A stretch of DNA of 64,000 bases from Candidatus Pacebacteria bacterium CG10_big_fil_rev_8_21_14_0_10_44_54 (GCA_002772695.1 PFDI01000001.1:33253-97252), one strand, 5' to 3'; positions 4,737 through 31,967 are shown, counted from the stretch's first letter. Notes: generated by a model from the letters alone, not told the origin. Program-made: numbers and translations.

Positions 4737-5333
4737 TCACATCATACTTTCAACCAAAACTTGCGAATACACGATACGAAATTCTTCACGAGCGCGAAAC
4801 AACTCCGACTCAATCGCCTTAACAGTCTTGCCGAACACACCGGCTATCTCTGTCACGCGCTTTTTGTCGATGTACTTAAGACGCAACAACTCTGCCGAGT
4901 GCGCCTGCATTCGAGCAAGGCAAGTAGTAACTAGCTGGGAAATCTCGGAAGTATCGTCGAGTGGCTTAGTCAAGAGTGCGTCGAGCAGTGGTACAGTATG
5001 CAGAGCTTTTTTTGCGTAGCGTTTGCGGTAGTAATCGGCTATCTCATGGCGAGCAATCGCGATCATCCATGTCCAAAGTGAAGCATCACCGCGAAACAGC
5101 GGCAGCTGCCGCAATGCATTGAGAAATGTTTCTTGAACTAGTTCCTCGCCGTCCTGCGGATCGCCCACTTTGTTTCTGACGTATCGCAACATCCTGTCGT
5201 GATACAGCGTAAACCACTGCCGCACGGCACTCGACTGACCACGCTTCAGCCTCACTATCAGCTGCTTTTCACTAGACATGAGTATATCGTATACTACTTG
5301 TATATGTTTGGCTTCCTTGTACCTGTTGCCCAT
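4737..5333 (-). CDS. ECF-type RNA polymerase sigma-70 family factor; true start is probably near 5279
   Basis: Region 2 (LVQETFLNALRQLPLFRGDASLWTWMIAIARHEIADYYR) and region 4 HTH (RVTEIAGVFGKTVKAIESELFRAREEF). Confidence 0.7.
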   Translation of the reverse strand: MGNRYKEAKHIQVVYDILMSSEKQLIVRLKRGQSSAVRQWFTLYHDRMLRYVRNKVGDPQDGEELVQETFLNALRQLPLFRGDASLWTWMIAIARHEIADYYRKRYAKKALHTVPLLDALLTKPLDDTSEISQLVTTCLARMQAHSAELLRLKYIDKKRVTEIAGVFGKTVKAIESELFRAREEFRIVYSQVLVESMM

Positions 5334-5666
5334 GCTATTACCGACTGCAAACCCGGCGAAGGTACTGAAGGTATTGATCTTGGCAATTGTCTCCGCCTTA
5401 GCAACGATAGCGCAATCAAAGACGTCTACTCCGAACCGGCTTTCTTGGTCAACCTCATCGTTCGCAATGCATTCGTCGCCGCCGGTGTTATTTTGTTTTT
5501 AATGATTTTCTTGGCAGGATTTAAGTTTGTTTCGCAGGGCAAAAAAGGCATGGAAGAAGCCAAAAACATCTCCAAGTCTGTTCTCATCGGCGCAATCTTG
5601 ATGTTTTGTGCCTACTGGATTGTACAAATTGTCCAGCTTTTGACTGGTGTTGATGTAGGGCTGTAA
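5304..5666 (+). CDS. T4SS-pilin-like protein, paralog P1 (TrbC/VirB2-like two-helix topology). The ORF-track start at 5199 overlaps the sigma gene, so ATG 5304 is more likely.
   Basis: Short signal-like N-terminus MFGFLVPVAHA. Core reads ...LFLMIFLAGFKFVSQGKKGMEEAKN...IGAILMFCAYWIVQIVQLL, with a charged loop between two hydrophobic helices. Confidence 0.5.
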   Translation: MFGFLVPVAHAITDCKPGEGTEGIDLGNCLRLSNDSAIKDVYSEPAFLVNLIVRNAFVAAGVILFLMIFLAGFKFVSQGKKGMEEAKNISKSVLIGAILMFCAYWIVQIVQLLTGVDVGL

Positions 5667-5667
5667 T

Positions 5668-6036
5668 ATGTCACAACTCGCAGCAAACAACCTTGGTATC
5701 GGCAAAATTGCTCAACCTCCTGGTGTAGACAAATACCAAGCTGCTGCTGGCAGCGAAATTGGTATCATGCTGTTTATCTCCATGCTCGTCAAGTTTGCCA
5801 TGATCGTGGCTGGTATTTGGGCAATGCTCAATATCTTTTTGGCCGCCTACATCTATATTAATGGCAAAGGTGATCCAGGCAATCACGAAAAAGTGGCCAA
5901 AGTTGTGACAAATACTACCATGGGCTTGGTGCTTCTTATTAGCCTCTATACAATCGTAGCCATTATTGGGCTTGTGTTCTTTGGGGATGCAAATTATATT
6001 TTGCGCCCAACACTAGCGCCGGTACCAGGTTTATGA
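5668..6036 (+). CDS. T4SS-pilin-like protein, paralog P2
   Basis: 122 aa with two hydrophobic helices (FISMLVKFAMIVAGIWAMLNIFLAAYIYINGKGDPGNHEKVAKVV...LVLLISLYTIVAIIGLVFFG). Tightly packed after P1. Confidence 0.5.
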   Translation: MSQLAANNLGIGKIAQPPGVDKYQAAAGSEIGIMLFISMLVKFAMIVAGIWAMLNIFLAAYIYINGKGDPGNHEKVAKVVTNTTMGLVLLISLYTIVAIIGLVFFGDANYILRPTLAPVPGL

Positions 6037-6599
6037 TCAAAATCATAACATTTCTTACTGCGTTCAGTTTATTTCACATATTTTCTGTTTCTGTAGTGCA
6101 GGCAGGTAGTTGCACAAGTGTTGGTGAGTGTGTGGATGGTCGTATCTGCGTCAAAGACACGCAATCAAACTTAATTTATAAAGGAAGTGAGTCATGTGGA
6201 GATGGCTCTGGACAAAGAATAATTGGCGAAATCACTCCCCCAAAATCAATTCGCAATTTAAATAATCTAGCAAGAATTAGAGATGGAGAATCTGTTGGCA
6301 TTGGCCTGATCATTTTCCTCTCGCGCGCACTGCGGCTGTTTACTATTGGGGTGGGATTATTTGTTATTGCCAACGTCGTCATGGCCGCCTACACCTACAT
6401 ATCAGAGTCAGATAGCAGTGACGTCATGACCAAAGTAAAAGAAAAGTTTACCTATACCGCTGTTGGGCTTGCTATAATTGTTGGCGCGTACACGCTTGCT
6501 GCGATCATTGGCTTACTCTTTTTTGGCGACGCAACATTTATCCTCTCACCAGAATTAACATCTGCGCTCGACCTCGCCGAAACTGCAGCCACACCATAA
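6033..6599 (+). CDS. T4SS-pilin-like protein, paralog P3, with a Cys-rich N-terminal extension
   Basis: Signal peptide plus a Cys-rich segment (AGSCTSVGECVDGRICV...SESCGDGSGQR), then the two-helix pilin core. Has a 4-nt overlap with P2. Confidence 0.5.
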   Translation: MIKIITFLTAFSLFHIFSVSVVQAGSCTSVGECVDGRICVKDTQSNLIYKGSESCGDGSGQRIIGEITPPKSIRNLNNLARIRDGESVGIGLIIFLSRALRLFTIGVGLFVIANVVMAAYTYISESDSSDVMTKVKEKFTYTAVGLAIIVGAYTLAAIIGLLFFGDATFILSPELTSALDLAETAATP

Positions 6600-6602
6600 A
6601 AC

Positions 6603-7007
6603 ATGTATAATAATGTCGTCATGAATACCCCACTCACCAGACTCGCGCAATTTGGCTCATTTGAACCACCAGTGGAGAATAAATTTACAACTGGTGCCAA
6701 CTCTGGCACTGGCGCCTTTACCAATCTAGAGCTGCTCATCTCTCATGCCTTTGGTGTCTTGACTGTTTTTGGTGGCTTATTTTTTATCGTCACCTTTCTG
6801 ATCGCTGGCATTAACTGGATTACCGCTGGCGGAGATACTGGCAAGATTGAGAAAGCACGCGGCAGCATGGTCCAGGGGACACTCGGTCTGGTAGTTATCG
6901 TCGCAGCCTATGCCGTGATTGGTGTTATCGGCTCTATCGTTGGCCTCAATTTGCTCAATCCTGCCGAGAGCCTGACTTCTTTGGTTACAAGAATACAAAC
7001 GCCATGA
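6603..7007 (+). CDS. T4SS-pilin-like protein, paralog P4
   Basis: Conserved loop motif INWITAGGDTGKIEKARGSMVQG lies between the two helices. Confidence 0.55.
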   Translation: MYNNVVMNTPLTRLAQFGSFEPPVENKFTTGANSGTGAFTNLELLISHAFGVLTVFGGLFFIVTFLIAGINWITAGGDTGKIEKARGSMVQGTLGLVVIVAAYAVIGVIGSIVGLNLLNPAESLTSLVTRIQTP

Positions 7008-7399
7008 AAAAAATACTAACTGCACTCGCATTTCTTGCGCTATCTACCTCAACCGTTTTGGCTGAGGTAACAAATCCAGCAGTGGGAACACTTGGTGCTG
7101 ATGCTGATGCAGCCGCAAGTGGCGCAACGTTTGCTCGCTACTTCATAATTCTCTGGCGCGCCCTCATTAGTGTTGGTGGTCTTGCGGTCGTTGTGCTCTT
7201 TTTGCAAGGTGGCATCGAGTGGGTTACCTCTGGTGGTGATTCTGGCAAGCTCGAAAAGGCACGCAATCGAATGGTACAGGGTGCGATTGGCTTGTTTGTG
7301 TTGGTAAGCTCCTTCACTCTGATAGCGTATATAAGCAAGTTGTTTTTTGGTCAAGAATTCCAAATTCTACAACTTACTTTTCCATCAGCGATTAAGTAA
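7004..7399 (+). CDS. T4SS-pilin-like protein, paralog P5
   Basis: Signal peptide. Loop motif IEWVTSGGDSGKLEKARNRMVQG. Confidence 0.55.
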   Translation: MKKILTALAFLALSTSTVLAEVTNPAVGTLGADADAAASGATFARYFIILWRALISVGGLAVVVLFLQGGIEWVTSGGDSGKLEKARNRMVQGAIGLFVLVSSFTLIAYISKLFFGQEFQILQLTFPSAIK

Positions 7400-7401
7400 C
7401 C

Positions 7402-7749
7402 ATGCCACCAACAGACGAAACCACCATCGACCTCTTCGAACAAGCAAAAACCCAAGAGCTTCCTGGCAGGAATGGTATTACTGATATCTCGAGTCCACAA
7501 GTTGGCTTGGGCAACCTCACTTCCAACCTTCTAAACATCGCCATGACTATTGCCGCCCTCCTGGTATTCATTTACTTGCTCTGGGGTGCGATTGGTTGGA
7601 TTACTGCTGGCGGCGACAAAGGCAAGATTGAAACAGCTCGCAATAAAATCACCACAGCCGTCATCGGTGTTGTAGTTTTAGCTTCGGTCGTGGCTATATT
7701 CAAAGTCTTACAGCTGGTTCTTGGTATTGAAGTCCTGACGTTTATCTAA
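7402..7749 (+). CDS. T4SS-pilin-like protein, paralog P6
   Basis: Loop motif IGWITAGGDKGKIETARNKITT flanked by hydrophobic helices. Confidence 0.55.
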   Translation: MPPTDETTIDLFEQAKTQELPGRNGITDISSPQVGLGNLTSNLLNIAMTIAALLVFIYLLWGAIGWITAGGDKGKIETARNKITTAVIGVVVLASVVAIFKVLQLVLGIEVLTFI

Positions 7750-7781
7750 TAAACTGATATTTGCATCTAGAAAATCAGAAG

Positions 7782-7790
7782 TGCTATAAT
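7782..7790 (+). promoter_or_regulatory. Extended -10 promoter element TGcTATAAT upstream of pilin P7, embedded in a small inverted repeat (TCAGAAG...CTTCTGA)
   Basis: The sequence agtgctataatc lies about 40 nt upstream of ATG 7831. An AAAGGA ribosome-binding site sits 7 nt before the start. Confidence 0.4.
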
Positions 7791-7830
7791 CTTCTGAACA
7801 AGACGTAGTACAGAGTACTAAAAGGAAAAC

Positions 7831-8304
7831 ATGACCAACTCATTTTCAAAAATTGCAAGTAAAGCAAGCGCTCTAGGCACTGCTGGGTATATTGCCTTAT
7901 CAAACACTCTTGGAAATGTTCTAGCCCAGAACACTGGCATAGGTACTAGCGCCTCTCGTCCAGCACCAGGGGTAGATAATGCTGGTGGCAACGTTCGTCT
8001 TGCCAAGGGTTATGCGGATAATGTTGGTAGTCTTATCACTTCTGTTCTGACGTTTGTTATGTTGATCGCTGCTCTTTTGATCCTTATGTATCTCATTTGG
8101 GGTGGTATCCAGTGGATTACTTCTGGTGGAGATAAAGGAAAGACTGAAGAAGCACGAAATAAGATTACTTCAGCCGTCATTGGTCTGATCATCCTAGCGG
8201 CAGCTTGGGCAGTCTTTTTAATTGTGCTCAAGTTCCTAGGATTTTCAAATTACAATGATCTGTTTAATAATATTCAAAGCATCAATACACCTTCTGCAGG
8301 CTAA
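7831..8304 (+). CDS. T4SS-pilin-like protein, paralog P7
   Basis: Loop motif IQWITSGGDKGKTEEARNKITS. C-terminal tail ...FLGFSNYNDLF is shared with P8. Confidence 0.55.
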   Translation: MTNSFSKIASKASALGTAGYIALSNTLGNVLAQNTGIGTSASRPAPGVDNAGGNVRLAKGYADNVGSLITSVLTFVMLIAALLILMYLIWGGIQWITSGGDKGKTEEARNKITSAVIGLIILAAAWAVFLIVLKFLGFSNYNDLFNNIQSINTPSAG

Positions 8305-8333
8305 TAATGCAGCTTTAGCTTTTTAACATTATG

Positions 8334-8358
8334 ACCCCCGCCGCTGGCGGGGGTTTTT
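8334..8358 (+). terminator. Rho-independent terminator after pilin P7
   Basis: GC stem cccccgcc / gcggggg with loop gctg, followed by TTTTT. Confidence 0.7.
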
Positions 8359-8375
8359 GTACATCATATTCCCAG

Positions 8376-8387
8376 ATGTAGTATAAT
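8376..8387 (+). promoter_or_regulatory. -10 element (TATAAT) upstream of pilin P8
   Basis: gtagtataat with TATAAT at 8382-8387, just upstream of ATG 8395. Confidence 0.35.
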
Positions 8388-8394
8388 ACCCAAC

Positions 8395-8871
8395 ATGATC
8401 AAATGGTATCAAAGTGTCTTTCTATGTCTGGTGGTTTTTGCCTACTTTTTGGCGCCAGCAGCAATCTCTGCTAGCGGTAGCTCGCTCGGTGTTGTTCGTG
8501 ACGGCGACTCTGTCTACCTCTCTACCACCGCTGCAACGCAATCAGCTACTGCAAGTGGTACAGCATTTGGAGACGTCACACTTTTTAAGGGCTACGCTCT
8601 TACACTTGGCGGCCTCATCACCTCGTTGCTCACTTTAATTATTCTTGTATCGGCTCTTCTTGTTTTTCTCCAACTCATCACCGCCGCCTTCCAATGGCTC
8701 ACCTCGGGCGGAGATAAGGGTAAAACAGGCGAAGCCAGAAGTAAAATTGTCGCTGCGATCATTGGCCTTGTTATTGTCGCTGCTTCTTGGGCTGTCTTTA
8801 TGGTGGTACTCAAATTCCTTGGTTTTGAGTCGTACGACGACTTGTTTGCCAATATGCGATCGATTAGTTGA
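8395..8871 (+). CDS. T4SS-pilin-like protein, paralog P8
   Basis: Loop motif FQWLTSGGDKGKTGEARSKIVA. Closest paralog of P7. Confidence 0.55.
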   Translation: MIKWYQSVFLCLVVFAYFLAPAAISASGSSLGVVRDGDSVYLSTTAATQSATASGTAFGDVTLFKGYALTLGGLITSLLTLIILVSALLVFLQLITAAFQWLTSGGDKGKTGEARSKIVAAIIGLVIVAASWAVFMVVLKFLGFESYDDLFANMRSIS

Positions 8872-8945
8872 TGTAAACCTTACTTTTTTTACTATAAAGC
8901 AAGAATACAAACACTCTAAAGCTAGTTTTATTGATCATTTCTGCC

Positions 8946-8954
8946 TGCTATACT
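8946..8954 (+). promoter_or_regulatory. Extended -10 promoter element TGcTATACT upstream of pilin P9
   Basis: ctgctatact ends 8 nt upstream of ATG 8963. Confidence 0.35.
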
Positions 8955-8962
8955 ACTAAGTG

Positions 8963-9409
8963 ATGCGCACACAGGCACTTTTTTTCAAAATGTACAAAAA
9001 TTTTACCACAGCTTTCGCCCTGTTCTTGATCAGTGTGCAGCCAGTCTTTGCCCAAACAGCTGCTTGGGGCGGCAAATGTGTGGATGGTGAACAAGATGAC
9101 GTCGCCACCATCCAAGGTCTTGAGTGTTTGTTTGCCAATGTATTTTTAGTCATTATTCCTCTCATTGGCCTGGCTGCGTTTGTCATGTTTCTGGTCGGAG
9201 CATTTCGCTGGCTCACCTCGGGCGGAGACACCAAACACACTGGTCAAGCCAAACAAACAATGACGTTTGCGGTGATCGGCATCGTAGTAGCACTCAGCGC
9301 TTTTATAATTTTAAACCTCATTGCCAATTTTACCGGTGTCGAGAAAATCAAAGAATTTAGGATTCCTCGCTCAAATGAGCCGCCCGAACAAACGCAATTT
9401 GTCGATTGA
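8963..9409 (+). CDS. T4SS-pilin-like protein, paralog P9, with a Cys-containing N-terminal segment
   Basis: Signal peptide, then AAWGGKCVDGEQDDVATIQGLEC, then loop motif FRWLTSGGDTKHTGQAKQTMT between helices. Confidence 0.5.
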   Translation: MRTQALFFKMYKNFTTAFALFLISVQPVFAQTAAWGGKCVDGEQDDVATIQGLECLFANVFLVIIPLIGLAAFVMFLVGAFRWLTSGGDTKHTGQAKQTMTFAVIGIVVALSAFIILNLIANFTGVEKIKEFRIPRSNEPPEQTQFVD

Positions 9410-9481: not shown

Positions 9482-12400
9482 GTGAGAATTTTTGCGAAAT
9501 TTATTGTGCCCCTTTGTCTGACGCTTGTTTTGGGCGCAGCACCTGCTTCTGTACAAGCTGTAGCTTGTGGGATAAATATTGACCCTACAAATCCTGCTGG
9601 ATATCCCAGCCCAAATGCTCTACCTGCTGGCAGTTGGGTACGACTTGAATACAAAGATTGTAGCACTCAAGAACCCGCAACTAACTCTGTTGAAATGTAC
9701 AAAGACGTGCTACAGACATATCGAAATGCCGGAATAAAAACCCTCGTCATTCTTGATTATCTCACCTATCCGGGAGCGGACAAAAATACACAAGCACTAG
9801 CAACACGAACAACATATATTAACGAAGAACTCGGTAGTCTAGTCGATGCCTACGAAATTTGGAATAAACCCGATATAGAACAGGGTGGCAATCTTGCGCC
9901 CAAAAATTTTGCAAAAATACTCGACGCAATCGTGCCAACCCTGAGTGGAAAAACGGTTGTTCTCGGTGGACTTGCATCGGGACAAACCAGCTACCTCGAT
10001 GAAACGCTGCGCGCTGTATCTGAGAACACACTGGGTGGAATTTCCGCCATAGGAATTCATCCTTATGCAAAGTCTGTCGATGGTTTTCCTGGACCAATGA
10101 CGGGAGATATGGGGTTTTTGCTGTCTCAATACAAGGCTTTATCTCAGGGAAAACCACTCTGGATAACCGAGATCGGTATCAACACCAAAAATGCTGAGCA
10201 AATAACCGGTTATCTAGATCGAGTGTTTGCTGCTGGTTATGGAGACCCTACTTTCTGGTTTGCGTGGAGTGATGGTATGGTACAGAATTTTGGCATTGTT
10301 GATGCAGATCAAAATCCAAAAGCTAACTTTTCAAACTACTTTCGGGCATGTGGCGCAGTCGCTCCCTCAGGAAAACAACAAACACTGCCAGCTATTACCC
10401 CAGTTGGAGGGCAAGGCTGTGGGGTAGCAATTTCAAAAAATAACTACAAAGATACCAAGTCAGATGATCCAAACCTATTTCACTTATCACCTTTTGATGG
10501 CTTGTATCCCGATCCAGGCACGCGCGACTATGATCAGTTGCGTCTCGATCTTGTTCAACAGGGCTACCAAGCATACTGTGCCATCCCAGATCAAGAAATT
10601 GTTGGTACCCTGAGTCCGGCAGAGATCGTCAAGTACTTTGTATCAAATGGGGGAGAAAAGGAACTTGAAATAAATCCCATTCTTACACTTGATTACTCGA
10701 AGGCACAAACACCTCTATTTCGCGACAGCGAAAGAAAATACCAAATAAAAAGTGACATAGAAGAATACTGGGTATATCAAGAATCAGAGGGAGATAGTTT
10801 CTCTCAGATCGAATTGCAGTCTGCTCCTATCGAATCAATTCTTTCAGAAGATCAGCGCTGTAGCCAAGGGGTAAAAAACTTGTACTCTCAAGATGATATG
10901 TGCTCAAAACTAACTGAGCCTAAAAGGTGTTCTCTCTATGCATCGCTTATCCCCAATACATCCCACACTGTTGAGAGTATTCTTGAAGAATATAAGTCTC
11001 ATGGGGGATCAAAAGAGAATGGACTTGAAGTATGCAAAAAACTGAGACTCGCAAATGAAAACACTCAGCGAAAACTTTTTTCTGACCTTACTCAAGTTCC
11101 TCTGAGCATTGATACGGGGTTTCGATTTGCTTTTTTGGTGCTCGCATTTCAAGAGCTGAAACCTGCCCCACTAGAGTTATTTCGCTTTTTTGGGCACGGT
11201 GCTCCACCCAGAGACGAAGTGCTGGTGATAGCGTTCAAAATTCCTGATATTATCACCAATAAACCTGAAGGAACTTCCTTCTCGGACTCAAACTCCTTTG
11301 CATATCCGGCCTTCTCTGATGGTGCGCTGCTCGCTAGAGATTCGCTGCTGAGCACCAAACAGCAAGCTGTGGCTCAAGAACAAAAAAAAGAACTCAAACA
11401 AGAGTTAACGACAACTATCGGGAGCGTTGCTGGTCAAAACAATGGTAGTCTCATTTACTGTCTTGATGGAACGCCGCCAAATGGCACTGGCAGTATCGCT
11501 TGCAATGATCAGCTGGTCAAAGCGCTTACAGATATCATCAACGCCCAACACGTCATCGACGATTCACAGCTTGTGTGTGTGGGTAAAGACGAAATTGATG
11601 CTTCATTTGTAATTGATGAACCAGCTGCTGCTCGTATACAGTCTCCTCCCGCTCTGTTTTCTGACCGTCTGGGGGCGCAAATCATTTCGCAGCTATTTTT
11701 AAGCCAAGCGAACACAGCTACCGACGCTCTTGCCAAAGAATTTTTTAGTTCTTTTTTGATAAATATTTCGACTACTGAGGGAGGAAACAAGCTGTCTGGC
11801 AACACAAAACTAAGAAGCTACATAGTCTACCCCGTTGGCTATGAACTTAAAGAAGTAGAAAATGTGCTTGCCAACAGTTTTTTGACCAAACAGCAAATCA
11901 CAGCATTGCAAAAAGATACAAACAACAACGAGCGTTTTGAAATGTACGGCGGCACTACAAAACTTACAGAAACTGAAGCTGGCTTTAGTGTTTTTTATCC
12001 CATAAACTGCATTCCCTCGATTGACTCTTGTTATAGAACTATCACGGGTGCTATCGACATGGGCGTTCTCAAGCCAATCCAGTTTCTTGGCGCCAAACTT
12101 GGCTACTATCTGCGCGCGGTACAGCGCACGCTTGCCAAAGAAGCTAGTTCTGTCCAAGCCTATCTCGCAAACTGCAAAACAACAGAGCAATTCCTGCTTG
12201 ATCGCTGTGCTAGCGTCCAACAAAAACCACCAAAGCAAGCACTGACATACTGCAGCATGAATGAGCTACCGATCACAAACGAGACTACCGAATCTTTCAA
12301 AATCTGTAAGGCAACCGAAAATTGGAGAGAATGCGAGCTTGTTGACGCAGGTAGCCCTACCTATTTTGTTGATGGTGGTTCAGACAACACACTCGAGTAT

Positions 12401-13789
12401 GTGGTACGCATCCTCGATGGCGCAACACTTGTTACCACCGGCAGTGTTGTGACAATGAATCCCGGCCAGGGCTATGATAAGGTTGAAGGCTCATACAAAC
12501 GCTGTGGAGTCGGCGATAGCGAAAGTGCCCCAGGCGAAGTGTGGTATTTGCCCCCAGGTACTCCCGCCGACGAGAGTATTGAGTCTTTTCGAACTTGGGC
12601 GAAGTATGGATCAAAGCTCATGCCGATTATCGGAAGCAACGCTTGGACAAATCTAACCGTCAGCTTGCGGGTGAAACCAGGCTACTACCACATTCCAAGC
12701 TGGACGTTTGGTTGCCTTAGTCGAGGTAAATGGTGGATTAACTCAAAGGGAGAGAAATCTGATGATGGTTTTACTCTTGGCAAGGGTATTATTCCTGTTG
12801 GAATCACTGCTTCCGGTAAACAATCCTACTGTGCGAAAGTCACGCTAAACTCAAATATGCCAGGAGGACCAAGTGACTCCGATGAAATCTTGCTGGACTC
12901 AAGCTACTCCTGCAGTATAGCTGATCCTGGTTATAACCTCACACTCAATAATAATTGTGGTGGACTCAATAGTAGTGGAGATGGACAGCTCTGGAGAGAC
13001 TTGTTTTCGGCGGATGACGAAAGGGGGACAAATAAACTCCCCGGGCTAGCCCTATATGAGAAAATTTTTGGAATAGCGTTCACTGTACCAAGCGATAATA
13101 TCGGCTGTGATCAGTTATTCCCCAACACTATCCGTGAAGTTGCTTGCGATGAGGTGAGTAATTCTGACGTGGGTAGTATTGCCAATTTTGGCAGTGATGT
13201 GTCGTTTGATATCGAGTACTGGAATCACAGTATGGTAACGTTCAAGCCGCCGTCTCAGGAAATTTGGAGTGCCATTCAAACTGCCTCTGCCAAGCATCGC
13301 TGCGATCCGTATCTAGTCTTGGCAGTGGCTCACTCTGAAAGTTCTCAGTATCGCAATGATACGGTCAGTTCAGCGGGAGCAAAAGGTGTCTGGCAATTTA
13401 CTGATGACACCTGGGACACGTGGAAAACTCCACACGCTGCAAGTGCAAATGAATGTCAGGCACACCAGCCACCAACCTTTTCTACCGAGGGTTTGGATTT
13501 TAGCTCTCCAACAAACATCCAGGCGGCCGCCGACTCAGCTTGTCGCAAAATTATGTGGATTGGTATGCAGCGGTATCCAGGTAATCTCAATAGCTTTGCA
13601 CGCGTCTTTGCGGTCAATGGTGATAACCCATATAGTCAGATTTGGAATGCGCACATCGAGCAAGGAAAGTACGTCTGGAGATTGTGGAAAAAACTGAGAG
13701 AGATCATTCCAGATGCCAAAACTCCTAGATCGCATCCTGCCAACTATCCTCAGGCAGGATGGGAAAGCTGTCCACAACGAAGAAATTAG
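9482..13789 (+). CDS. Giant secreted protein (1435 aa). N-terminal part is glycoside-hydrolase-like (TIM-barrel type). C-terminal part is a VirB1-like lytic transglycosylase (SLT) domain.
   Basis: Signal peptide MRIFAKFIVPLCLTLVLGAAPASVQA. GH-type nucleophile context GKPLWITEIGINTK near aa 225. C-terminal SLT signature CDPYLVLAVAHSESSQYRNDTVSSAGAKGVWQFTDDTW. Confidence 0.55.
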   Translation: MRIFAKFIVPLCLTLVLGAAPASVQAVACGINIDPTNPAGYPSPNALPAGSWVRLEYKDCSTQEPATNSVEMYKDVLQTYRNAGIKTLVILDYLTYPGADKNTQALATRTTYINEELGSLVDAYEIWNKPDIEQGGNLAPKNFAKILDAIVPTLSGKTVVLGGLASGQTSYLDETLRAVSENTLGGISAIGIHPYAKSVDGFPGPMTGDMGFLLSQYKALSQGKPLWITEIGINTKNAEQITGYLDRVFAAGYGDPTFWFAWSDGMVQNFGIVDADQNPKANFSNYFRACGAVAPSGKQQTLPAITPVGGQGCGVAISKNNYKDTKSDDPNLFHLSPFDGLYPDPGTRDYDQLRLDLVQQGYQAYCAIPDQEIVGTLSPAEIVKYFVSNGGEKELEINPILTLDYSKAQTPLFRDSERKYQIKSDIEEYWVYQESEGDSFSQIELQSAPIESILSEDQRCSQGVKNLYSQDDMCSKLTEPKRCSLYASLIPNTSHTVESILEEYKSHGGSKENGLEVCKKLRLANENTQRKLFSDLTQVPLSIDTGFRFAFLVLAFQELKPAPLELFRFFGHGAPPRDEVLVIAFKIPDIITNKPEGTSFSDSNSFAYPAFSDGALLARDSLLSTKQQAVAQEQKKELKQELTTTIGSVAGQNNGSLIYCLDGTPPNGTGSIACNDQLVKALTDIINAQHVIDDSQLVCVGKDEIDASFVIDEPAAARIQSPPALFSDRLGAQIISQLFLSQANTATDALAKEFFSSFLINISTTEGGNKLSGNTKLRSYIVYPVGYELKEVENVLANSFLTKQQITALQKDTNNNERFEMYGGTTKLTETEAGFSVFYPINCIPSIDSCYRTITGAIDMGVLKPIQFLGAKLGYYLRAVQRTLAKEASSVQAYLANCKTTEQFLLDRCASVQQKPPKQALTYCSMNELPITNETTESFKICKATENWRECELVDAGSPTYFVDGGSDNTLEYVVRILDGATLVTTGSVVTMNPGQGYDKVEGSYKRCGVGDSESAPGEVWYLPPGTPADESIESFRTWAKYGSKLMPIIGSNAWTNLTVSLRVKPGYYHIPSWTFGCLSRGKWWINSKGEKSDDGFTLGKGIIPVGITASGKQSYCAKVTLNSNMPGGPSDSDEILLDSSYSCSIADPGYNLTLNNNCGGLNSSGDGQLWRDLFSADDERGTNKLPGLALYEKIFGIAFTVPSDNIGCDQLFPNTIREVACDEVSNSDVGSIANFGSDVSFDIEYWNHSMVTFKPPSQEIWSAIQTASAKHRCDPYLVLAVAHSESSQYRNDTVSSAGAKGVWQFTDDTWDTWKTPHAASANECQAHQPPTFSTEGLDFSSPTNIQAAADSACRKIMWIGMQRYPGNLNSFARVFAVNGDNPYSQIWNAHIEQGKYVWRLWKKLREIIPDAKTPRSHPANYPQAGWESCPQRRN

Positions 13790-14698: not shown

Positions 14699-15211
14699 TC
14701 AGAGTGTATCAATGGGGAGGTGTCTACTAGCTGCTCGAACATACTTGAGAGAGAGCATGAGAACAGTTTTACTAATTAGCGATGGTAGAAAACCAAAATG
14801 TAGATAAAAAGCAGCAGCTTCCTTGTGTAGAGCATGAACTAAGATCGCTCGGACACCAATCTTTTCTGCAACCTGCAACGTTCGCAGAATAGCGTCCCGA
14901 AGTAATGCCCTACCAAGCCCTTTGCTTTGCCATACCTCTGCAACAGCCAGTCTGCCCAAAATTACCACTGGAATAGGATTGGGCATATTTCGCCTCACTC
15001 TACCTGGAGTCGCTTGAGCCATAACGGAGCCGCTAGCAAGTGAGTAGTAGGCAACTACCTTGTTCTCTGCCACAGCAACATAGGTGCGCGATGCTCCAGA
15101 AAGCTGGTTCTGCAGTGCTCTGCGCCGCAACCACTGATCCAACTCTAGATCGCCAGAGGAAAAATCGGATAAGTTGTATGATTTGATGAGTAGGGTTGGT
15201 CTCAATCCCAT
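14699..15211 (-). CDS. tacT: GNAT-family acetyltransferase toxin (TacT/AtaT-like). The ORF-track start at 15292 overlaps the antitoxin, so Met near 15211 is more likely.
   Basis: GNAT core VVILGRLAVAEVWQSKGLGRALLRDAILRTLQVAEKIGVRAILVHALHKEAAAFYLHFGF. Sits immediately downstream of, and slightly overlapping, the DUF1778 antitoxin. Confidence 0.6.
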   Translation of the reverse strand: MGLRPTLLIKSYNLSDFSSGDLELDQWLRRRALQNQLSGASRTYVAVAENKVVAYYSLASGSVMAQATPGRVRRNMPNPIPVVILGRLAVAEVWQSKGLGRALLRDAILRTLQVAEKIGVRAILVHALHKEAAAFYLHFGFLPSLISKTVLMLSLKYVRAASRHLPIDTL

Positions 15212-15486
15212 GGAGCTGGAGTAGCTAGCAATGTCTGAAGTGCTTTTGGATGACGGATAGGAGCATCGAGAATTGCGGCAAACTCCTCCCACTTTGTATC
15301 ATCTAACAAAAATAACTGCTGGTCGAGCAATGCGCTCTCGGCTTCTCGTGCAGCTACATCTAAAATAAATTCTGAGCGTGTTTTGCCCCGTACTCGAGCG
15401 GCCTGGTCAATCAAGTCTCGCTGGACTGGAGCTATACGAATATTGATGTGGATGCTTTTTGCAGTTGGTGTTTTCTGTGTTTGCAT
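15202..15486 (-). CDS. tacA: DUF1778 / TacA-family RHH antitoxin
   Basis: 94 aa. IRIAPVQRDLIDQAARVRGKTRSEFILDVAAREAE ribbon-helix-helix segment, typical of partners of GNAT toxins. Confidence 0.6.
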   Translation of the reverse strand: MQTQKTPTAKSIHINIRIAPVQRDLIDQAARVRGKTRSEFILDVAAREAESALLDQQLFLLDDTKWEEFAAILDAPIRHPKALQTLLATPAPWD

Positions 15487-15598
15487 GTTTATATCTTACA
15501 GAATAGTTGTGAGATGTCAACACATTGTGTGTACAAATAAAGATGAATGTACTTTTTATCTTGATATTTTGTGCATCCTGATGTACAATTAGTCAAAT

Positions 15599-16759
15599 AT
15601 GAAATATACTAGACACTTAGAAGCAAATCTGCTTTCTCATTTTTCCAACTACAAACAAGCAATCGTACTGCTTGGAGCACGCCAAACAGGTAAGACAACG
15701 TTGCTCAGGCGGCTGTTTCCAGATGCGCTCTACATCCTACTCGACAACGAGCAAACAAAAAATGTTCTTGAAACATATGACATCTCAACCTATAAGCAAG
15801 CTATTGGTCGCACCAAACAACTCATTATTGACGAACTTCACCTATTACATGACCCTGGGAGGGCCGTTAAAATCATCTACGATCAGGTCCCTGGTTTGCA
15901 ACTTATTGTCACCGGCTCATCCGCACTCCACATAAAAAACAACTCGACAGAAAGTATGGCGGGTCGAAAAATCGAATACAACTTATTTCCACTCACTTTT
16001 TCTGAGTATCTTGTGCAAAAAAATATAGAGACCGTCCTTAATCACTCTGTACTGACCAATGTACTAGAACAAACAACTCCTCCCAAGCATCTGTTCTCCC
16101 CATCAGGACTGCTCGAGCAGGTTCTACTTTACGGTTTGTATCCTGATGTGCTCAACCTACCAGAACCTCGACAATATCTACTCAATTTGGCTGAAAGCGC
16201 TATTTTTAAAGATATAGTCGAGCTAAACCTCATCGACAATCGCAGTAAAGCAAAATCGCTCCTTGAGCTACTCGCGTATCAGATCGGCAATCTTTGCAAC
16301 TACTCAGAGATCGGCGCCAGATTATCTCTAGATAGACGAACAGTAGAGCGATACATAGACATTTTTGAACAAAGTTTTATTGTATTTCGCATCTTTCCTT
16401 ATGCAAACAACAAAAGAAACGAAATAGGAAAAACGCCAAAAATTTACTTTCATGATTTGGGCCTGCGTAATGCTCTGATCGATAACTATGACTCCATCAC
16501 AGTGCGGTCGGATGCAGGCGCGCTGTTTGAAAATTTTATAATTGCGGAACTCAAAAAAAACATTTCTTATCAACAAAGTGATTTCTCACTCAATTACTGG
16601 CGGACAAATAATGGTGCTGAGGTAGATATTGTTCTCAGTAATAACCACACAGTTATTGGCGCAGAAGTTAAAATGCAGAGTGGTTCAGTTTCTACAGCAT
16701 TTACCAATCGCTATCCTGATGCAAAGACGCACGTTATAACCAGACATACTTTTTATTAG
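15599..16759 (+). CDS. AAA-family ATPase with C-terminal DUF4143 domain (COG1373-like)
   Basis: Walker A LLGARQTGKTTLL. Walker B-like LIIDELHLL. C-terminal DUF4143-like region (SEIGARLSLDRRTVERYIDIFEQSFIVFRIFPYANN...). Confidence 0.65.
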   Translation: MKYTRHLEANLLSHFSNYKQAIVLLGARQTGKTTLLRRLFPDALYILLDNEQTKNVLETYDISTYKQAIGRTKQLIIDELHLLHDPGRAVKIIYDQVPGLQLIVTGSSALHIKNNSTESMAGRKIEYNLFPLTFSEYLVQKNIETVLNHSVLTNVLEQTTPPKHLFSPSGLLEQVLLYGLYPDVLNLPEPRQYLLNLAESAIFKDIVELNLIDNRSKAKSLLELLAYQIGNLCNYSEIGARLSLDRRTVERYIDIFEQSFIVFRIFPYANNKRNEIGKTPKIYFHDLGLRNALIDNYDSITVRSDAGALFENFIIAELKKNISYQQSDFSLNYWRTNNGAEVDIVLSNNHTVIGAEVKMQSGSVSTAFTNRYPDAKTHVITRHTFY

Positions 16760-16815: not shown

Positions 16816-18573
16816 ATGCTCAAGCGGATTCTCACCACCGCCGTTTTGTTTTCGATGGTTTTTTTACCGAATGTTATTTATGCACAACAAGGCGAGTCAG
16901 CATCGCTAGATTACGCCCAATTTAGCACCGAAGAATTTGCCGCCTACAAAGAAGCCACCGAAAATTGTGATAGCCCGTCCCTCGAGTGTTTGACCAAAAA
17001 CACCACCCGCTTCGTCGCTATGGAGTGGATCCATGATATTTTGGGCCAGCCGACAAAAGATCAAGCAACAAGTGAGGTGAGTGCTAACTCACCAACAGAA
17101 ATGCTTGTCAATTCAAACACCGGCCTCATGGGCGGCATGACCAAACTCATCGCCGGTATGTACTCCTACCCACCCGCTCGGACCAGCCGCTTTGTGGCAG
17201 ACGTCGCCCAATCTGCTGGCGTAACTCCAGCTTATGCCCAAGGGCTCGGCTTTGCCGCTCTTGATCCGGTGCTTGATCTTTGGAAGAAGTTTCGCAACCT
17301 TGCCTACTTCTTTTTTATAATCATGTTTCTTGTCATCGGCTTTATGATTATGTTTCGCTCCAAGGTGGGCGGCCAAGCGGCCATCACTGCCCAACAAGCG
17401 ATTCCCTCTATCCTCATTAGCCTGATTCTCGTCACTTTTTCGTATGCGATCTCGGGGTTTCTTATTGACCTCATGTACTTAAGCATGTACCTCATCGTAG
17501 GATTGTTTGGTGAGCTCACTACTGATAGCGGAGCCTCGTCAAGCCTCATTAGTATGAATATCTTTCAACTTGGTGGACAACTTCTCAAAGAATCGGCAGG
17601 AAATTTGGGACAAACGACTGACATTGTAAACCAGGTAATCGTAGGACTTATTGGTACCAGCAATGCAGTCACGGGCTTAGTATCAATCATCTCTGGTCTC
17701 ACTTTGTCACTTGTCTTGGCGGTCGCAATAGTGATCGCCCTGTTTCGACTCTTTTTTGAACTACTCAAATCGTACGCCAGTATCGTGGTTGGTGTCGTCA
17801 CCGCTCCTATCTACCTGATGATGGGAGCTATTCCTGGCAAAAATGCCTTTGCTGGCTGGATTAAAAGCATGATTGGCAATCTAGCTGCCTTCCCCACCGT
17901 ACTTCTGGTTGTCGTGCTTTTTTATGAGTTTACCCAAGCTGGCAGTGCCGGCTCGAGTGTGCGCTCTGGTGGCTTCTTGCCGCCGTTTCTAATTGGTGGT
18001 GGCCAGTCGAGTGTGGCGAGTGCACTGCTTGGCTTTGCCCTGCTCCTTGCGCTGCCAGAAGTGGTGAAGAAAATCAAAGAAGCACTGGGTGCCAAAGCTG
18101 GGTTGGGTGAACAGATTGCTGGGTGGGCGGGTGGTAGAATGAAGGATGCTTGGAGTGGTAAATATGGTGCAAAATCAATAATGAGAGAGGGTGCAAAACT
18201 GCCAGTTCGTGGTGTAGGTGCTTACTATGGAGCAAAATTGGGCTCAAACTTTGCCGAAAAAGCAGGGCTTACAGGATGGAAGAGAAATTTGGCGACTATA
18301 GCTGGATCAGGAGTTGGCTTTCAAGCGGCGCCGTCTGTCCCGGGTTTTGCTATTAACACTTTAAAATCTACTGGAAACCAAGTTCGGGATGCCTATATTA
18401 AAGAACAGCTCGAAGATGTTAAAACTGCAATTGATAAGACTATTCGCAGAAAAGATGCAGACGCATATCGGGATGCTGCAGTTAAATCTCAAGACAATAT
18501 CAAACACCCAGAGTCATCCCAAGCAAAACAGGGTGATGGTATATCTTCTAAGCAAAGATCTACGTTTAGTTAA
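16816..18573 (+). CDS. VirB6/TrbL-like polytopic membrane protein
   Basis: Signal peptide, an extracytoplasmic segment of about 150 aa, then 5 or more long hydrophobic helices and a hydrophilic Gly/Lys-rich C-terminal tail. Located inside the T4SS locus. Confidence 0.45.
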   Translation: MLKRILTTAVLFSMVFLPNVIYAQQGESASLDYAQFSTEEFAAYKEATENCDSPSLECLTKNTTRFVAMEWIHDILGQPTKDQATSEVSANSPTEMLVNSNTGLMGGMTKLIAGMYSYPPARTSRFVADVAQSAGVTPAYAQGLGFAALDPVLDLWKKFRNLAYFFFIIMFLVIGFMIMFRSKVGGQAAITAQQAIPSILISLILVTFSYAISGFLIDLMYLSMYLIVGLFGELTTDSGASSSLISMNIFQLGGQLLKESAGNLGQTTDIVNQVIVGLIGTSNAVTGLVSIISGLTLSLVLAVAIVIALFRLFFELLKSYASIVVGVVTAPIYLMMGAIPGKNAFAGWIKSMIGNLAAFPTVLLVVVLFYEFTQAGSAGSSVRSGGFLPPFLIGGGQSSVASALLGFALLLALPEVVKKIKEALGAKAGLGEQIAGWAGGRMKDAWSGKYGAKSIMREGAKLPVRGVGAYYGAKLGSNFAEKAGLTGWKRNLATIAGSGVGFQAAPSVPGFAINTLKSTGNQVRDAYIKEQLEDVKTAIDKTIRRKDADAYRDAAVKSQDNIKHPESSQAKQGDGISSKQRSTFS

Positions 18574-18833: not shown

Positions 18834-21800
18834 TTACTTAAAGATATTGGAAAAGTTAATCTGTTTTATTGTTCCGTCTACGATCGCTCTAACCCTTGAT
18901 GACTGTGAAAAACCTGCCTCTAATGCCTCGACTATAGCCTCTTGCTCTTCGTCAAAAAGAGTATTTTGTAATCCGTAAATCCATCTTTTTACCTCATTCA
19001 TCTCCTTGCCATTTCTCAGCTGTAAAATTGCGGAAGCGAAAGCAATTACATGAATCACTGCATCACGCACCTTGTCACCATTAAGAAAACCCGCCAAAAT
19101 CTCGGGGCCAAACTCAGGAAGAGTCGTTACAGCATATTTATCTTTTTTCTTTAATCCAGCAAGTTTTGATCTTGGAACACCTGAGACTGCAAAGGTTTCC
19201 TCTTCGGCTTTCAAAATTCCAGCGAGAAAATCATGAATATTTTTTGCATTATTGTAATAAGCTCTTATATCATCTTGCTGTGGCCTTAATGTAGAAAAAG
19301 GCATTAGTTCGTAATACAGCTCGCCATCCTCACCAACATAATCAGAAAAAGAAACCAGTTTACCTAAGTTGCCGTTCTCTTCAGGAGCGAACCTCTGGAA
19401 GCTCCCATCACCATTTCTTGACATAAAATACTTTAGGGGAGGTTGAAATATAGTAAATTTGCCTTGGTCATCTGGTTTAACGTCAATGAGTGGAAGCTCA
19501 ACAAGATACCAAAATCTATCATACAGCCCCTTCTCTATGAATCGTTCTTCGATTTTGCTTCTAACCTCTGAAGGATTGACTAGATTTGAAATAAATGTTT
19601 CTACAACACCTGACTTACCAACCACCTGCTCTGGAGCATCTAATGCATAATTTTTCTCTGCTCCCAACGCTCCAAAAAGCACTCTTGTTATAAAAGTGTT
19701 GTATCCATGAACTCCTTGTAGAATTTCTTTGTCAAGATAGTCTAACCAACGAAATGCATAAAAAATATTATCCGGAACAAACGAGCTACTCGGCGCCAAC
19801 CAAGCTTGATTCAGAAACAACACATGAAGCAAAAATGCTCGTTTAACGTGGTTCTCATTTATTCTGCTCTGGTATTTTTGATTAGTTCTTTCAGGAAGCG
19901 GGCTGCCTTTGCTTTTGGCAATTACAAGATCTTCTTCAAATTTGTTGTCCAATCTTCTTTGTTCTAATATCAACACCGTACGTCTAATTAAATCCATGTT
20001 GAAGTTCAGAGATTGTCCAGTTAGTCCAAACTCATCTTCATGATCTCCTCGATAAATTGCGTCTAAATGCCTCATAACTTGACCATACGCTGTCACGTTT
20101 ACTTCAACTTCTTTCGGGTTTCTGGTTTCCCAATCAGCCATCACAATCTTCCTCTTCTCCAGAACTGGATTTGTTTCAATTTCCTCTCGGTAAAGAACTT
20201 CTGCTGGTTTTCCCACCACACTAGTTGACCTTCTAATAAATTGTTCCGCTTGCTTTCCCTCAATCGCAAACAGATCGCTAAGAGCAAGGGGAAAGTCTTT
20301 AGGCACAACAGAATCGCCCGATCCCCAACCCATAATTCTTGAATTTACGCTTTGTTCTGTTAGATAAACCACCATTCTGAGACCTAAATCTGTTTTAAAC
20401 TCTTCAAAGTCGGCTACAAATTTAGCAGATTCATCTGGATGAATGGCTCCAACAATCCGACTAACTCTTGCAAAAATTCTCTGACCAAAAATAACATCCT
20501 TTACCTCATTTCCAACCAAGGCGACTGCGCCTTTATCATCACCCTCGTATGCGGTCATAGTATTGTTTGCGCACTCCTTTGTCTTTCGATAATCTGCTTT
20601 CAAAACTAATTGCTCAAGATCATTAATAGCGTTTTTGTCAAAACTCCTATCTCTTGCTTGGCGAATCGATTCGTACAAACTATCAAAAGTTTCCAAAGGA
20701 TTGTCTTCTTTTGTCATTAAGTACGGCGCCTCACTCTCAATTTGAGCAATCCTTAAAGATATATCGGAAACAAATTGCTCAAAATTCTCAATATTCTCAA
20801 GTGCCTTATTTCTTAGGTCTTTAAAAAGAGACTTTGCTCGCTCTATTTCAGCAGACAAAAGTGATGTTGTAGTGCTATCTTGTTTTACAAGAATGAGAAG
20901 TGTGTCAATTGCACTACCCAAGCTTTTCTCACGTTCAACAATACTTTGTTTGTCATAAACACCCACTCTCGCACTAAGAATCGCTTCTGCCTGAGCAGCT
21001 TCGCTTCTTAAAGAGATGATTTCATCTGATGCCTCCAAAATCGTTAAAATTTGGGCTTCTAGTTGAGATTTTGCAGTCAAGTATCCAGTTTTCCCTTTTA
21101 TATAAATTTCATTTAGGTGGTCAATTGCTTCAAGCCTATTTCTGACTGAACTAAAAAAACCATAGTCAAGATCTTCTAAATACCTTGAATAAAGTAGTCT
21201 TGCATCAACAAGTTTTTGCGTTAGATTTATTAATGAGTCAAGGTCGCCCACACTTTGCCCAGAAACTTGACTTAATACTTCAACACAAACTTTTTCTAAA
21301 TCTAAAGCAAAAACTGGGTGATCATCTTTTTTCCAGTTAGCTAAGTCAACGACTCCTACTAATTGAGACTCAATTTGAAACTTACTGTCTATTTCTTGAG
21401 CTACAGAGGAAATTGTTGTTCTAAGCTCAACCGAGACACGCTCATCATATTGAAAGTCTCTTATAGTTGCAAGAATTCTAGCAGCAGCTGAGATATCTTT
21501 TTCATCGATAGCAATCCTTATACTTCTTAGCCTGGATTCAATCAGAGTTTGCAATTGCTTTGGCTGCTCAAAATATTCGGACGCAACATTTCTTTGCTCC
21601 GATACTGCGCTTCCATCGCTAGAAACAAGATTTTTTTCTAAAAACTCTGCTATCAATAAATTTAGCAATCCCTCTTCCTCATAAAGTAGTTGTTCAGTTG
21701 TCCAAATCTCGTCCCCGTCCAGCTCTTGAAAAAATCCAAGAGATGCTGCGCCCGCAATTTCATTAAGCTTGTCAAGAATTACTCCTATTCTTTCTGCAAC

Positions 21801-22058
21801 TTGTTGCTGAATGGACTCAAGCAACTGGCCAATATCGCCCCCAGAAAGAAGTTTTTGTGCTGCTGCTGCTGCTGCAATATATATTCTCTTAGTTTCAGGA
21901 AAATCCGTGAGTCCCTCTACAATTTTCCGTTGTGTTGAGTGATCAGTTGTGAGTTGCAAAGAATTAACGGATGCCTCCAATCGCCGCACAGATTCTTCCA
22001 CCAGTTCTCTGCGATCATACTGTCGATGACCTAATACACCAACTTCATTAGTTTCCAT
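18834..22058 (-). CDS. Large (1074 aa) predicted cytoplasmic, alpha-helical/coiled-coil protein of unknown function, inside the T4SS locus
   Basis: Long uninterrupted ORF with no transmembrane segment and no P-loop. Contains an in-frame Ala6 run from a (GCT)6 repeat. Confidence 0.5.
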   Translation of the reverse strand: METNEVGVLGHRQYDRRELVEESVRRLEASVNSLQLTTDHSTQRKIVEGLTDFPETKRIYIAAAAAAQKLLSGGDIGQLLESIQQQVAERIGVILDKLNEIAGAASLGFFQELDGDEIWTTEQLLYEEEGLLNLLIAEFLEKNLVSSDGSAVSEQRNVASEYFEQPKQLQTLIESRLRSIRIAIDEKDISAAARILATIRDFQYDERVSVELRTTISSVAQEIDSKFQIESQLVGVVDLANWKKDDHPVFALDLEKVCVEVLSQVSGQSVGDLDSLINLTQKLVDARLLYSRYLEDLDYGFFSSVRNRLEAIDHLNEIYIKGKTGYLTAKSQLEAQILTILEASDEIISLRSEAAQAEAILSARVGVYDKQSIVEREKSLGSAIDTLLILVKQDSTTTSLLSAEIERAKSLFKDLRNKALENIENFEQFVSDISLRIAQIESEAPYLMTKEDNPLETFDSLYESIRQARDRSFDKNAINDLEQLVLKADYRKTKECANNTMTAYEGDDKGAVALVGNEVKDVIFGQRIFARVSRIVGAIHPDESAKFVADFEEFKTDLGLRMVVYLTEQSVNSRIMGWGSGDSVVPKDFPLALSDLFAIEGKQAEQFIRRSTSVVGKPAEVLYREEIETNPVLEKRKIVMADWETRNPKEVEVNVTAYGQVMRHLDAIYRGDHEDEFGLTGQSLNFNMDLIRRTVLILEQRRLDNKFEEDLVIAKSKGSPLPERTNQKYQSRINENHVKRAFLLHVLFLNQAWLAPSSSFVPDNIFYAFRWLDYLDKEILQGVHGYNTFITRVLFGALGAEKNYALDAPEQVVGKSGVVETFISNLVNPSEVRSKIEERFIEKGLYDRFWYLVELPLIDVKPDDQGKFTIFQPPLKYFMSRNGDGSFQRFAPEENGNLGKLVSFSDYVGEDGELYYELMPFSTLRPQQDDIRAYYNNAKNIHDFLAGILKAEEETFAVSGVPRSKLAGLKKKDKYAVTTLPEFGPEILAGFLNGDKVRDAVIHVIAFASAILQLRNGKEMNEVKRWIYGLQNTLFDEEQEAIVEALEAGFSQSSRVRAIVDGTIKQINFSNIFK

Positions 22059-23116: not shown

Positions 23117-23119
23117 ATA

Positions 23120-30833: not shown

Positions 30834-30884
30834 CTTGCCGCCTGCCTTGAAACACGCTACGATACTACACAGAGACAAACTTGC

Positions 30885-31916: not shown

Positions 31917-31938
31917 GATTTGGCCAATAAACAATACT

Positions 31939-31967
31939 CAACCCACAACTTTCATTGTTGTGGGTTG
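31939..31967 (+). other. Perfect 11-bp stem / 7-nt loop hairpin in the 70-bp gap between the two VirB4 ORFs
   Basis: caacccacaac-tttcatt-gttgtgggttg. No following T-tract, so it is not a canonical intrinsic terminator. Confidence 0.6.

Follow-up and report, generated by a model that had tools for sequence, protein, structure and literature searches.

A three-part exported protein encoded directly after VirB2-like pilin genes is a candidate envelope-glycan-cutting accessory of a Patescibacteria type IV secretion locus

The type IV secretion systems (T4SS) of Patescibacteria are akin to the conjugation systems of monoderm bacteria and are often encoded near dnaA, according to a survey published in 2025 (PMC12102498). 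The same survey describes arrays of 2-11 VirB2 genes, found above all in Microgenomatia and Saccharimonadia, and reports that VirB1 homologues linked to virB4 are rare outside Paceibacteria, with other glycosidases suggested for that role (PMC12102498). The only experimental data on a Patescibacteria T4SS come from Southlakia, which belongs to a different class (PMC10633639), and in which epibiotic growth requires both the T4SS cluster and its pilin array (PMC10633639; PMC12857230). Here we analyse a stretch of 64,000 nucleotides (hereafter the window) from Candidatus Pacebacteria bacterium CG10_big_fil_rev_8_21_14_0_10_44_54 (GCA_002772695.1 PFDI01000001.1:33253-97252), and in particular the gene for a protein of 1,435 amino acids (aa) that lies just downstream of a VirB2-like pilin array. 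An earlier note, made by a model from the sequence alone, had described this protein as a secreted, two-activity wall-degrading enzyme linked to a T4SS, with a glycosidase at one end and a 'VirB1-type' lytic transglycosylase at the other. Our study points instead to a three-part protein, in which a head of glycoside hydrolase clan A (GH-A) and a lysozyme-like tail flank a cysteine-rich core that defines a family. We think it probable, with modest confidence, that the gene encodes an envelope-glycan-cutting accessory protein of a Patescibacteria (Microgenomatia-type) T4SS/VirB2-pilus locus, and in our best reading it takes on the VirB1-like role that has been reported missing from Microgenomatia. 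Our literature search found no description of this protein family.

The gene (coordinates of all features are given in Table 1) begins with GTG and ends with TAG, and its product is identical to NCBI PIR60876.1 ('hypothetical protein COU67_00260'), encoded on a 99-kb contig of a Candidatus Pacebacteria metagenome-assembled genome; near-identical copies are present in five other assemblies. A Pfam scan of the protein gave PF11790 (Glyco_hydro_cc) at aa 127-250 with 25.0 bits (cut-off 21) and PF01464 (SLT) at aa 1264-1313 with 23.9 bits (cut-off 21.3), and nothing significant between the two matches, so that about 900 residues separating the GH-A and SLT parts have no Pfam assignment. The reading frame and the Pfam matches thus confirm the 1,435-aa protein with two terminal glycan-cleaving domains that had been proposed. 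Residues 1-26 form its sole hydrophobic segment by Kyte-Doolittle analysis, with no further membrane segment, and a similar signal-like pattern recurs at the N-terminus of homologues. This is consistent with a Sec signal peptide, as claimed before, with a cleavage site that we infer from the sequence. A lipoprotein was also considered and dropped, because no canonical lipobox precedes C29. The mature protein contains 30 cysteines.

The link to a T4SS comes from the position of the gene. The first three open reading frames (ORFs) of the upstream array (window 5304..6599, + strand) score below the PF18895 cut-off and clearly match a hidden Markov model (HMM) built from the pilins of the window's own array, which is why we count nine members; a mechanically called ORF at 5199..5666 overlaps the neighbouring sigma factor gene and probably starts at about 5304. 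Across 20 loci, 12 of them from GTDB species representatives (labelled Paceibacterota, Woesebacteria or Patescibacteria), homologues with 20-64% identity directly follow 2-10 pilin-like genes on the same strand in every case. With nine pilin genes ending 72 bp upstream and the same arrangement in 20/20 loci, the placement immediately after a pilin array, and with it the T4SS link, is borne out. The same data bear on the idea that the protein is a housekeeping autolysin or wall-remodelling enzyme for growth or division, merely encoded beside pilins. Wall turnover is indeed a common task of SLT-type lytic transglycosylases, the locus lies on the chromosome close to the replication origin, and one related locus (L003) has other wall genes nearby (SpoIID, VanW/PG_binding_4). 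However, the adjacency to same-strand pilins persists down to 20% identity, other genes of the locus are likewise syntenic, the family occurs only in lineages that have such arrays, and housekeeping autolysins seldom carry exchangeable non-peptidoglycan glycosidase heads of the kind described below. We consider a housekeeping role quite unlikely.

The family is defined by its centre rather than its ends. An exhaustive HMMER search with the central module recovered 208 clusters (50% identity), of which 158 had E<=1e-30, and the module usually occupies about residues 320-950 within proteins of 1,100-1,700 aa. It is conserved at 20-32% identity among proteins whose ends differ, and aa 325-915 are therefore not a linker. 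Over 37 diverse members, R414, E427, C474, C483, R548, P588, N687, C699, P784 and G786 are invariant, and numerous further cysteines of the module are nearly so. Searches of the module against Pfam, the PDB (with a profile), PHROGs and by fold gave no match. Of the roughly 900 aa described earlier as unassigned, all indeed lack a Pfam match, but about 590 make up this conserved family module. Structure prediction of the central region, which had been suggested as a check, did yield an AlphaFold2 (AF2) model, of low confidence (mean predicted local distance difference test score, pLDDT, 51), and no fold match came from it.

We mapped the domain architecture of 160 family members. An N-terminal domain of 280-400 aa is present in 108/160 and a C-terminal domain of 150-250 aa in 112/160. 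The heads fall into several BLAST groups, among which the PslG-like head of our query is a minority type with 8 members; another group (17 members) is homologous to it (hhalign probability 92%). Several groups share an invariant N-E followed by a second E about 100 residues on, and Pfam detects GH5 in some heads. The largest group (70 members) gave an hhalign probability of 28% against clan GH-A, with NE and TE aligned correctly, and a profile search of this dominant head type against the PDB found nothing significant; two small groups appear unrelated. At the C-terminus, three main groups can be told apart (64, 45 and 29 members), and motifs of the E[S/G][S/T]...G..Q type occur in all of them. 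The first of these is SLT/SLT_3 by Pfam, and the other two gave hhalign probabilities of 56% and 80% against the SLT profile of the query; PDB profile searches with the two non-SLT_3 types returned no matches. Pfam analysis of the domains flanking the module across the family identified only SLT_3, GH5, Glyco_hydro_cc and SLT. These groupings suggest a general plan in which a conserved core carries a glycosidase head that can be exchanged and a tail of lysozyme type.

In clan GH-A, the acid/base Glu of an N-E-P motif ends strand 4 and the nucleophile Glu (T-E-x-G) ends strand 7, while further signature residues include an Arg in strand 2, His-x-Tyr in strand 6 and Trp in strand 8. In an alignment of 15 sequences, the corresponding columns R54, N128, H193-P-Y195 and W259/W262 are invariant or nearly so. 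The profile of these 15 homologues matched the uncharacterized protein 5jvk best in the PDB (E 8.5e-16) and PslG (5bx9/4zn2) with E 9.4e-16 over query positions 20-282, that is, nearly the whole domain; GH39 beta-xylosidases followed at E 1.7e-8 to 1e-5, and GH128, the family of the Pfam match, was weak (E about 1e-4). The alignment places W-N-x-P of the query over E139 of the PslG chain and T-E of WITEIG over E250, and a single offset of +26 turns these into E165 and E276, the two residues mutated in a catalytically inactive PslG variant (PMC4928890). The nucleophile aligned to E276 is E230 (codon 10169-10171) within WITEIG (aa 227-232), invariant in 15/15 sequences, so that the first reading of WITEIG as the nucleophile context of a TIM-barrel glycosidase stands. 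Together, the PslG/GH39 profile matches and the clan signature residues identify the N-terminal domain, at the level of sequence, as a clan GH-A glycosidase of PslG/GH39 type. It appears nearest to enzymes that cut polysaccharides other than peptidoglycan, and not to known peptidoglycan hydrolases. Since its closest relatives are the exopolysaccharide hydrolases of the PslG/GH39 type, the label 'wall-degrading' is not established for the head.

PslG-like heads with about 28-31% identity and a retained WITE[IFL]G are also found in Chloroflexi proteins (P0013-P0023; Anaerolineae, Promineifilaceae), where they lie C-terminally or centrally in large proteins with C39 peptidase, GH5 and PF16158 domains; the head is thus a mobile module shared beyond the candidate phyla radiation (CPR). 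The presence of the head in large, secreted Chloroflexi proteins of several domains would suit a polysaccharidase/muramidase that harvests nutrients from host or environmental glycans, independently of secretion, for an auxotrophic CPR cell. CPR bacteria lack many biosynthetic pathways (PMC12102498), and our protein carries a probable signal peptide and lacks a membrane anchor. Such a role would nevertheless leave the strict pilin synteny and the conserved 600-aa module unexplained, the window contains no adjacent sugar-uptake or catabolic genes, and a catalytic knock-out allele, to which we now turn, persists in the population. We find nutrient harvesting an improbable explanation.

Of the acid/base and nucleophile pair expected of the GH-A head, the window keeps the second only: E230 is in place, whereas the acid/base position aligned to PslG E165 is a lysine, K129, in the motif W-N-K-P-D. 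A motif search found WNEPD in all the more distant homologues with the close form of the head (P0002, P0003, P0006-P0012); this search did not capture the distant Chloroflexi copies P0013-P0023. Among six full-length near-identical assemblies, four have K129 and two E129, and comparison of the window with an E129 contig (L006) revealed just 3 differences over 23,789 bp, namely the G/A change giving E129K, one synonymous site in the same gene and one intergenic site; E129K alone alters an amino acid over these roughly 24 kb. We rejected the idea that the lysine is a sequencing error or an artefact of the window, because it occurs in four independently assembled records, two of them NCBI entries. 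From the WNEPD of distant homologues, the count among the six assemblies and the three-difference comparison, we therefore conclude that K129 is a real, common and derived allele of a near-clonal population.

Another K129 haplotype additionally carries E116Q and R1181S; these belong to the variant sites 9827, 13024 and 13087 seen in the gene among near-identical assemblies. The window differs from a further related contig (L008) by 28 single-nucleotide polymorphisms, 5 of them inside this gene. All four combinations of sites 8325 and 9866 occur among the assemblies; since consensus assemblies from metagenomes may be chimeric, we do not take this as a sign of recombination or recurrent mutation.

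A retaining glycosidase that has lost its acid/base Glu should be far less active on natural substrates. With K129 in its place, the GH-A head of the window allele is probably catalytically crippled and would at most bind glycan; the lysine may pair with the nucleophile. The lack of a GH catalytic residue is what the earlier note had itself named as speaking against its proposal, and a two-activity enzyme is therefore doubtful for the genome of the window, although sister alleles with E129 exist. The tolerated substitution lends some weight to another explanation, in which the protein is an adhesin at the pilus tip or cell surface, its heads are lectin-type glycan binders that recognize the host and set host range, and catalysis is secondary or lost. 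E129K is common (K in 4/6) and the sole non-synonymous change over the 23.8 kb compared with L006, heads have been exchanged between lineages while the core was kept, and we know of no VirB5-like tip protein in Patescibacteria-type systems. The gene also lies directly after pilin arrays that are highly variable (PMC12102498). Against an adhesin, WNEPD...WITE[IF]G is otherwise strictly conserved in members with the close head, NE...E is invariant in other subtypes, the E-S of the SLT domain is invariant, and a location at the tip has no structural support. The conserved catalytic pair and the invariant SLT E-S therefore favour catalysis in most members, and we regard the adhesin as rather unlikely. 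A related proposal, to which we give a similarly low probability, is a pilus-borne 'drill' for episymbiosis, with the module at the pilus or its tip, the tail cutting host peptidoglycan, the exchangeable head recognizing and destroying a host-specific surface polysaccharide and so setting host range like a phage tailspike, and E129/K129 acting as a selected switch between cutting and binding.

The C-terminal part appears to be a divergent SLT-type domain with its catalytic Glu intact. The motif AHSESS...GAKGVWQF lies at aa 1283-1306, where E1286 (codon 13337-13339), followed by S1287, corresponds to the E-S of SLT motif I, and G1302-V-W-Q1305, within G-A-K-G-V-W-Q at 1299-1305, to motif II. 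The S-E-S, G and Q of these motifs are invariant across 7 close homologues, and the presence of the catalytic Glu is in keeping with the original assignment. Motif III (A-Y-N-x-G) is found only in a degenerate form, 'F-A-[VI]-x-G-[DE]-N'. The PF01464 match spans profile positions 2-50 of 117, and about 45 extra residues are inserted after motif II. A profile of the region aligned with MltC (ESS...GLMQ) on ES...GxxQ at E 0.12-0.7, and a single-sequence phmmer search of the region against the PDB gave no significant match. In the AF2 model of aa 905-1435 (mean pLDDT 56) the SLT region is of low to moderate confidence, and its top Foldseek matches are nearly all GH23 or lysozyme-like (g-type lysozyme, MltF, MltE, MltC, FlgJ and the T7 core protein), individually non-significant at E 0.29-10. 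Searches of plasmids with tblastn recovered weak matches (E 2e-3 to 1), confined to some 55 residues of the generic SLT core, in Gram-positive 'NlpC/P60 family' hydrolases, and further weak tblastn matches were to PRD1-type phage transglycosylases and lytic transglycosylases of jumbo-phage tail fibres. An NCBIfam scan that included VirB1 gave no match. 'VirB1-type' is accordingly a label taken from context and not a demonstrated sequence relationship, the only matches being to a generic SLT core of 50-60 residues. Between the module and this domain, the close family has an insert with a beta-rich part (aa ~927-1124, pLDDT 65-85) and then a Cys/Gly/Ser-rich stretch; its profile gave a weak cupin-like match (1qwr, E 0.003).

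These observations suggest how the accessory enzyme might work. The protein would be exported by Sec, and the Cys-rich module, the part that links it to the pilin locus, would most likely, to judge from the gene order, dock it to the pilus or secretion apparatus at the cell surface. By analogy with SLT chemistry, the C-terminal SLT/GH23 domain would cleave the MurNAc-GlcNAc bond of peptidoglycan via E1286, while the PslG/GH39-like head would act as a retaining endoglycosidase on a surface polysaccharide other than peptidoglycan, and in other lineages it is replaced by other GH-A-type or unrelated heads. Both enzyme domains together would open a path through the envelope for the pilus or T4SS, the target being the cell's own wall, a host envelope, or both.

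Several points weigh against this interpretation. The favoured role is drawn from sequence and synteny. Gene adjacency indicates co-inheritance and not physical association, and the docking role of the module, which has no detectable relative and a poor model, is deduced purely from gene order. The SLT match, at 23.9 bits, takes in only some 50 of the 117 positions of the profile, the matches to solved lytic transglycosylases are individually non-significant (E 0.12; Foldseek 0.29), and for two of the three C-terminal types a lysozyme-like nature is argued from motifs and moderate hhalign scores. Finally, a natural population can do without at least one of the activities, as K129 shows. The alternatives discussed above are nevertheless less well supported than an accessory enzyme, the adhesin having gained some weight from the tolerated mutation. 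Of the earlier proposal as a whole, the architecture and the T4SS link hold; in the genome of the window, however, the glycosidase lacks its acid/base residue, the head is akin to exopolysaccharide hydrolases and not to wall hydrolases, and 'VirB1-type' is not established.

The family provides a concrete, strictly syntenic candidate for the VirB1-like hydrolase role in Microgenomatia-type genomes. Its combination of a glycosidase, a novel core and a lysozyme-like domain is unusual, and the exchangeable heads could reflect host specificity. The defined 600-residue module can be tested for pilus binding, and the E129/K129 pair in nearly identical genomes offers a natural control for what the first enzyme activity contributes.

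Table 1. Features of the gene, its product and the surrounding locus (positions in the window).
Feature	Position	Strand	Basis or remark
Whole gene, three-part exported protein	9482..13789	+	One ORF, as in every homologue
Signal-peptide-like N-terminus (aa 1-26: MRIFAKF, then a hydrophobic core and SVQA|V)	9482..9559	+	Kyte-Doolittle, homologue comparison
Clan GH-A (beta/alpha)8-type glycosidase domain, PslG/GH39-like (aa ~27-310)	9560..10411	+	PF11790, profile vs PDB, invariant columns
K129 codon AAA at GH-A acid/base position	9866..9868	+	Aligned to PslG E165; motif WNKPD
Conserved Cys-rich central module, family-defining (aa 325-915)	10454..12226	+	Homologue searches, alignment
Lineage-specific insert (aa ~927-1254), close family only	12260..13243	+	Homologue alignment, model
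C-terminal SLT/GH23 lytic-transglycosylase-like domain (aa ~1255-1435)	13244..13786	+	PF01464, motifs, MltC alignment
ECF-type sigma factor (Sigma70_r2/r4_2/ECF)	4737..5333	-	Divergent from pilin array
Nine VirB2-like T4SS pilin genes (PF18895), tandem	5304..9409	+	Pfam and own-array pilin HMM; end 72 bp upstream of gene
Conserved syntenic gene, 287 aa	13808..14671	-	No transmembrane (TM), Pfam or PHROG match
Polytopic protein, 585 aa, about nine TM-like segments	16816..18573	+	No Pfam match; syntenic in distant loci (about 545-641 aa)
Conserved syntenic gene, 1,074 aa (related loci about 880-1,120 aa)	18834..22058	-	No TM, Pfam or PHROG match
1,448-aa protein, Ala/Ser/Thr-rich low-complexity stretches	24675..29021	+	No Pfam match; four TM-like segments at about aa 900-1,120
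PrgI/VirB3-like protein, CarboxypepD_reg-like C-terminus	29622..30833	+	Window scan
VirB4/TraG-type ATPase	31987..33909	+	Window scan; just before dnaA, dnaN

The surroundings of the gene are in part conserved as well. In related loci it is followed on the opposite strand by a gene for a protein of about 290-350 aa, corresponding to the 287-aa gene of the window. The 585-aa polytopic protein may be a highly divergent VirB6/PrgH-like channel subunit, a component reported as 'scarce' in Microgenomatia. The 1,448-aa protein has a HELGH zinc-protease-like motif near its C-terminus, and counterparts of ~1,340-1,450 aa occupy the same position in related loci. Further downstream (window 29622..36815, + strand), a PrgI/VirB3-like gene, a gene for a 343-aa Pro/Thr-rich protein and a VirB4-like ATPase gene lie directly upstream of dnaA/dnaN, which matches the published origin-proximal placement of Patescibacteria T4SS genes. 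On the other side, the extracytoplasmic function (ECF) sigma factor is a candidate for a dedicated regulator of the pilin/hydrolase locus; the same divergent arrangement is present in related loci L001, L002, L004, L006 and L008. Promoter and terminator scans gave results at chance level, and we therefore make no operon claim from them. Two regions between the conserved genes (14699..16759 and 22529..23527) look like accessory insertions and contain a GNAT toxin with a TacA-like antitoxin, an AAA_14/DUF4143 ATPase, a second, truncated DUF4143 gene and a helix-turn-helix (HTH) gene; L001 has a different toxin-antitoxin set (Gp49/HTH, PIN) in the same places. Five of the related loci (L011, L012, L013, L017 and L018) are titled 'uncultured Pseudomonadales' (one isolate HK-STAS-PATE-16), which looks like mislabelled taxonomy.

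Envelope hydrolases associated with T4SS are already known, and it is the core defining the present family that is novel. PrgK (pCF10), TraG (pIP501), TcpG (pCW3) and TgaA of the Gram-positive mating-pair formation class MPF-FATA are likewise exported proteins of monoderm-type T4SS loci that join an SLT/lysozyme-like domain to a second hydrolytic domain. Their partner domain is a CHAP/NlpC-P60 or LytM peptidase, whereas here it is a clan GH-A glycosidase. They are without the 600-aa Cys-rich module, usually have an N-terminal membrane anchor and are smaller than the members of the present family (1,100-1,700 aa). To our knowledge, Gram-positive T4SSs have no VirB2, and genes of the PrgK/TraG type are for that reason not found behind pilin arrays. 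PslG of Pseudomonas aeruginosa and GH39 enzymes share with our protein the clan GH-A signature and the aligned NEP acid/base and TE nucleophile motifs. PslG, however, is a single-domain periplasmic or secreted exopolysaccharide hydrolase from a biosynthesis operon, whereas our domain forms one end of a three-part protein and, in the window allele, has Lys at the equivalent of E165. Phage depolymerases and lysins (tailspike glycanases; the PRD1 P7 and T7 gp16 lytic transglycosylases) show no significant likeness to our protein beyond the generic SLT core, and no PHROG match was obtained for what is here a chromosomal cellular gene; the likeness is one of logic, in that a filament or injection device bears glycan-cutting domains, with exchangeable receptor-destroying heads, to get through a target envelope. 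VirB1 of the Agrobacterium type shares the SLT core with its ES motif, export by a signal peptide and a gene beside that of the VirB2 pilin. It has about 240 aa with the SLT domain at the N-terminus, and the gene order is reversed with respect to ours, which comes after the pilins; our protein has an extra glycosidase head and a large novel core, and gives no VirB1-specific profile match. The non-catalytic part of VirB1 (VirB1*) is needed for pilus biogenesis, a functional analogy to the proposed docking module of the family described here.

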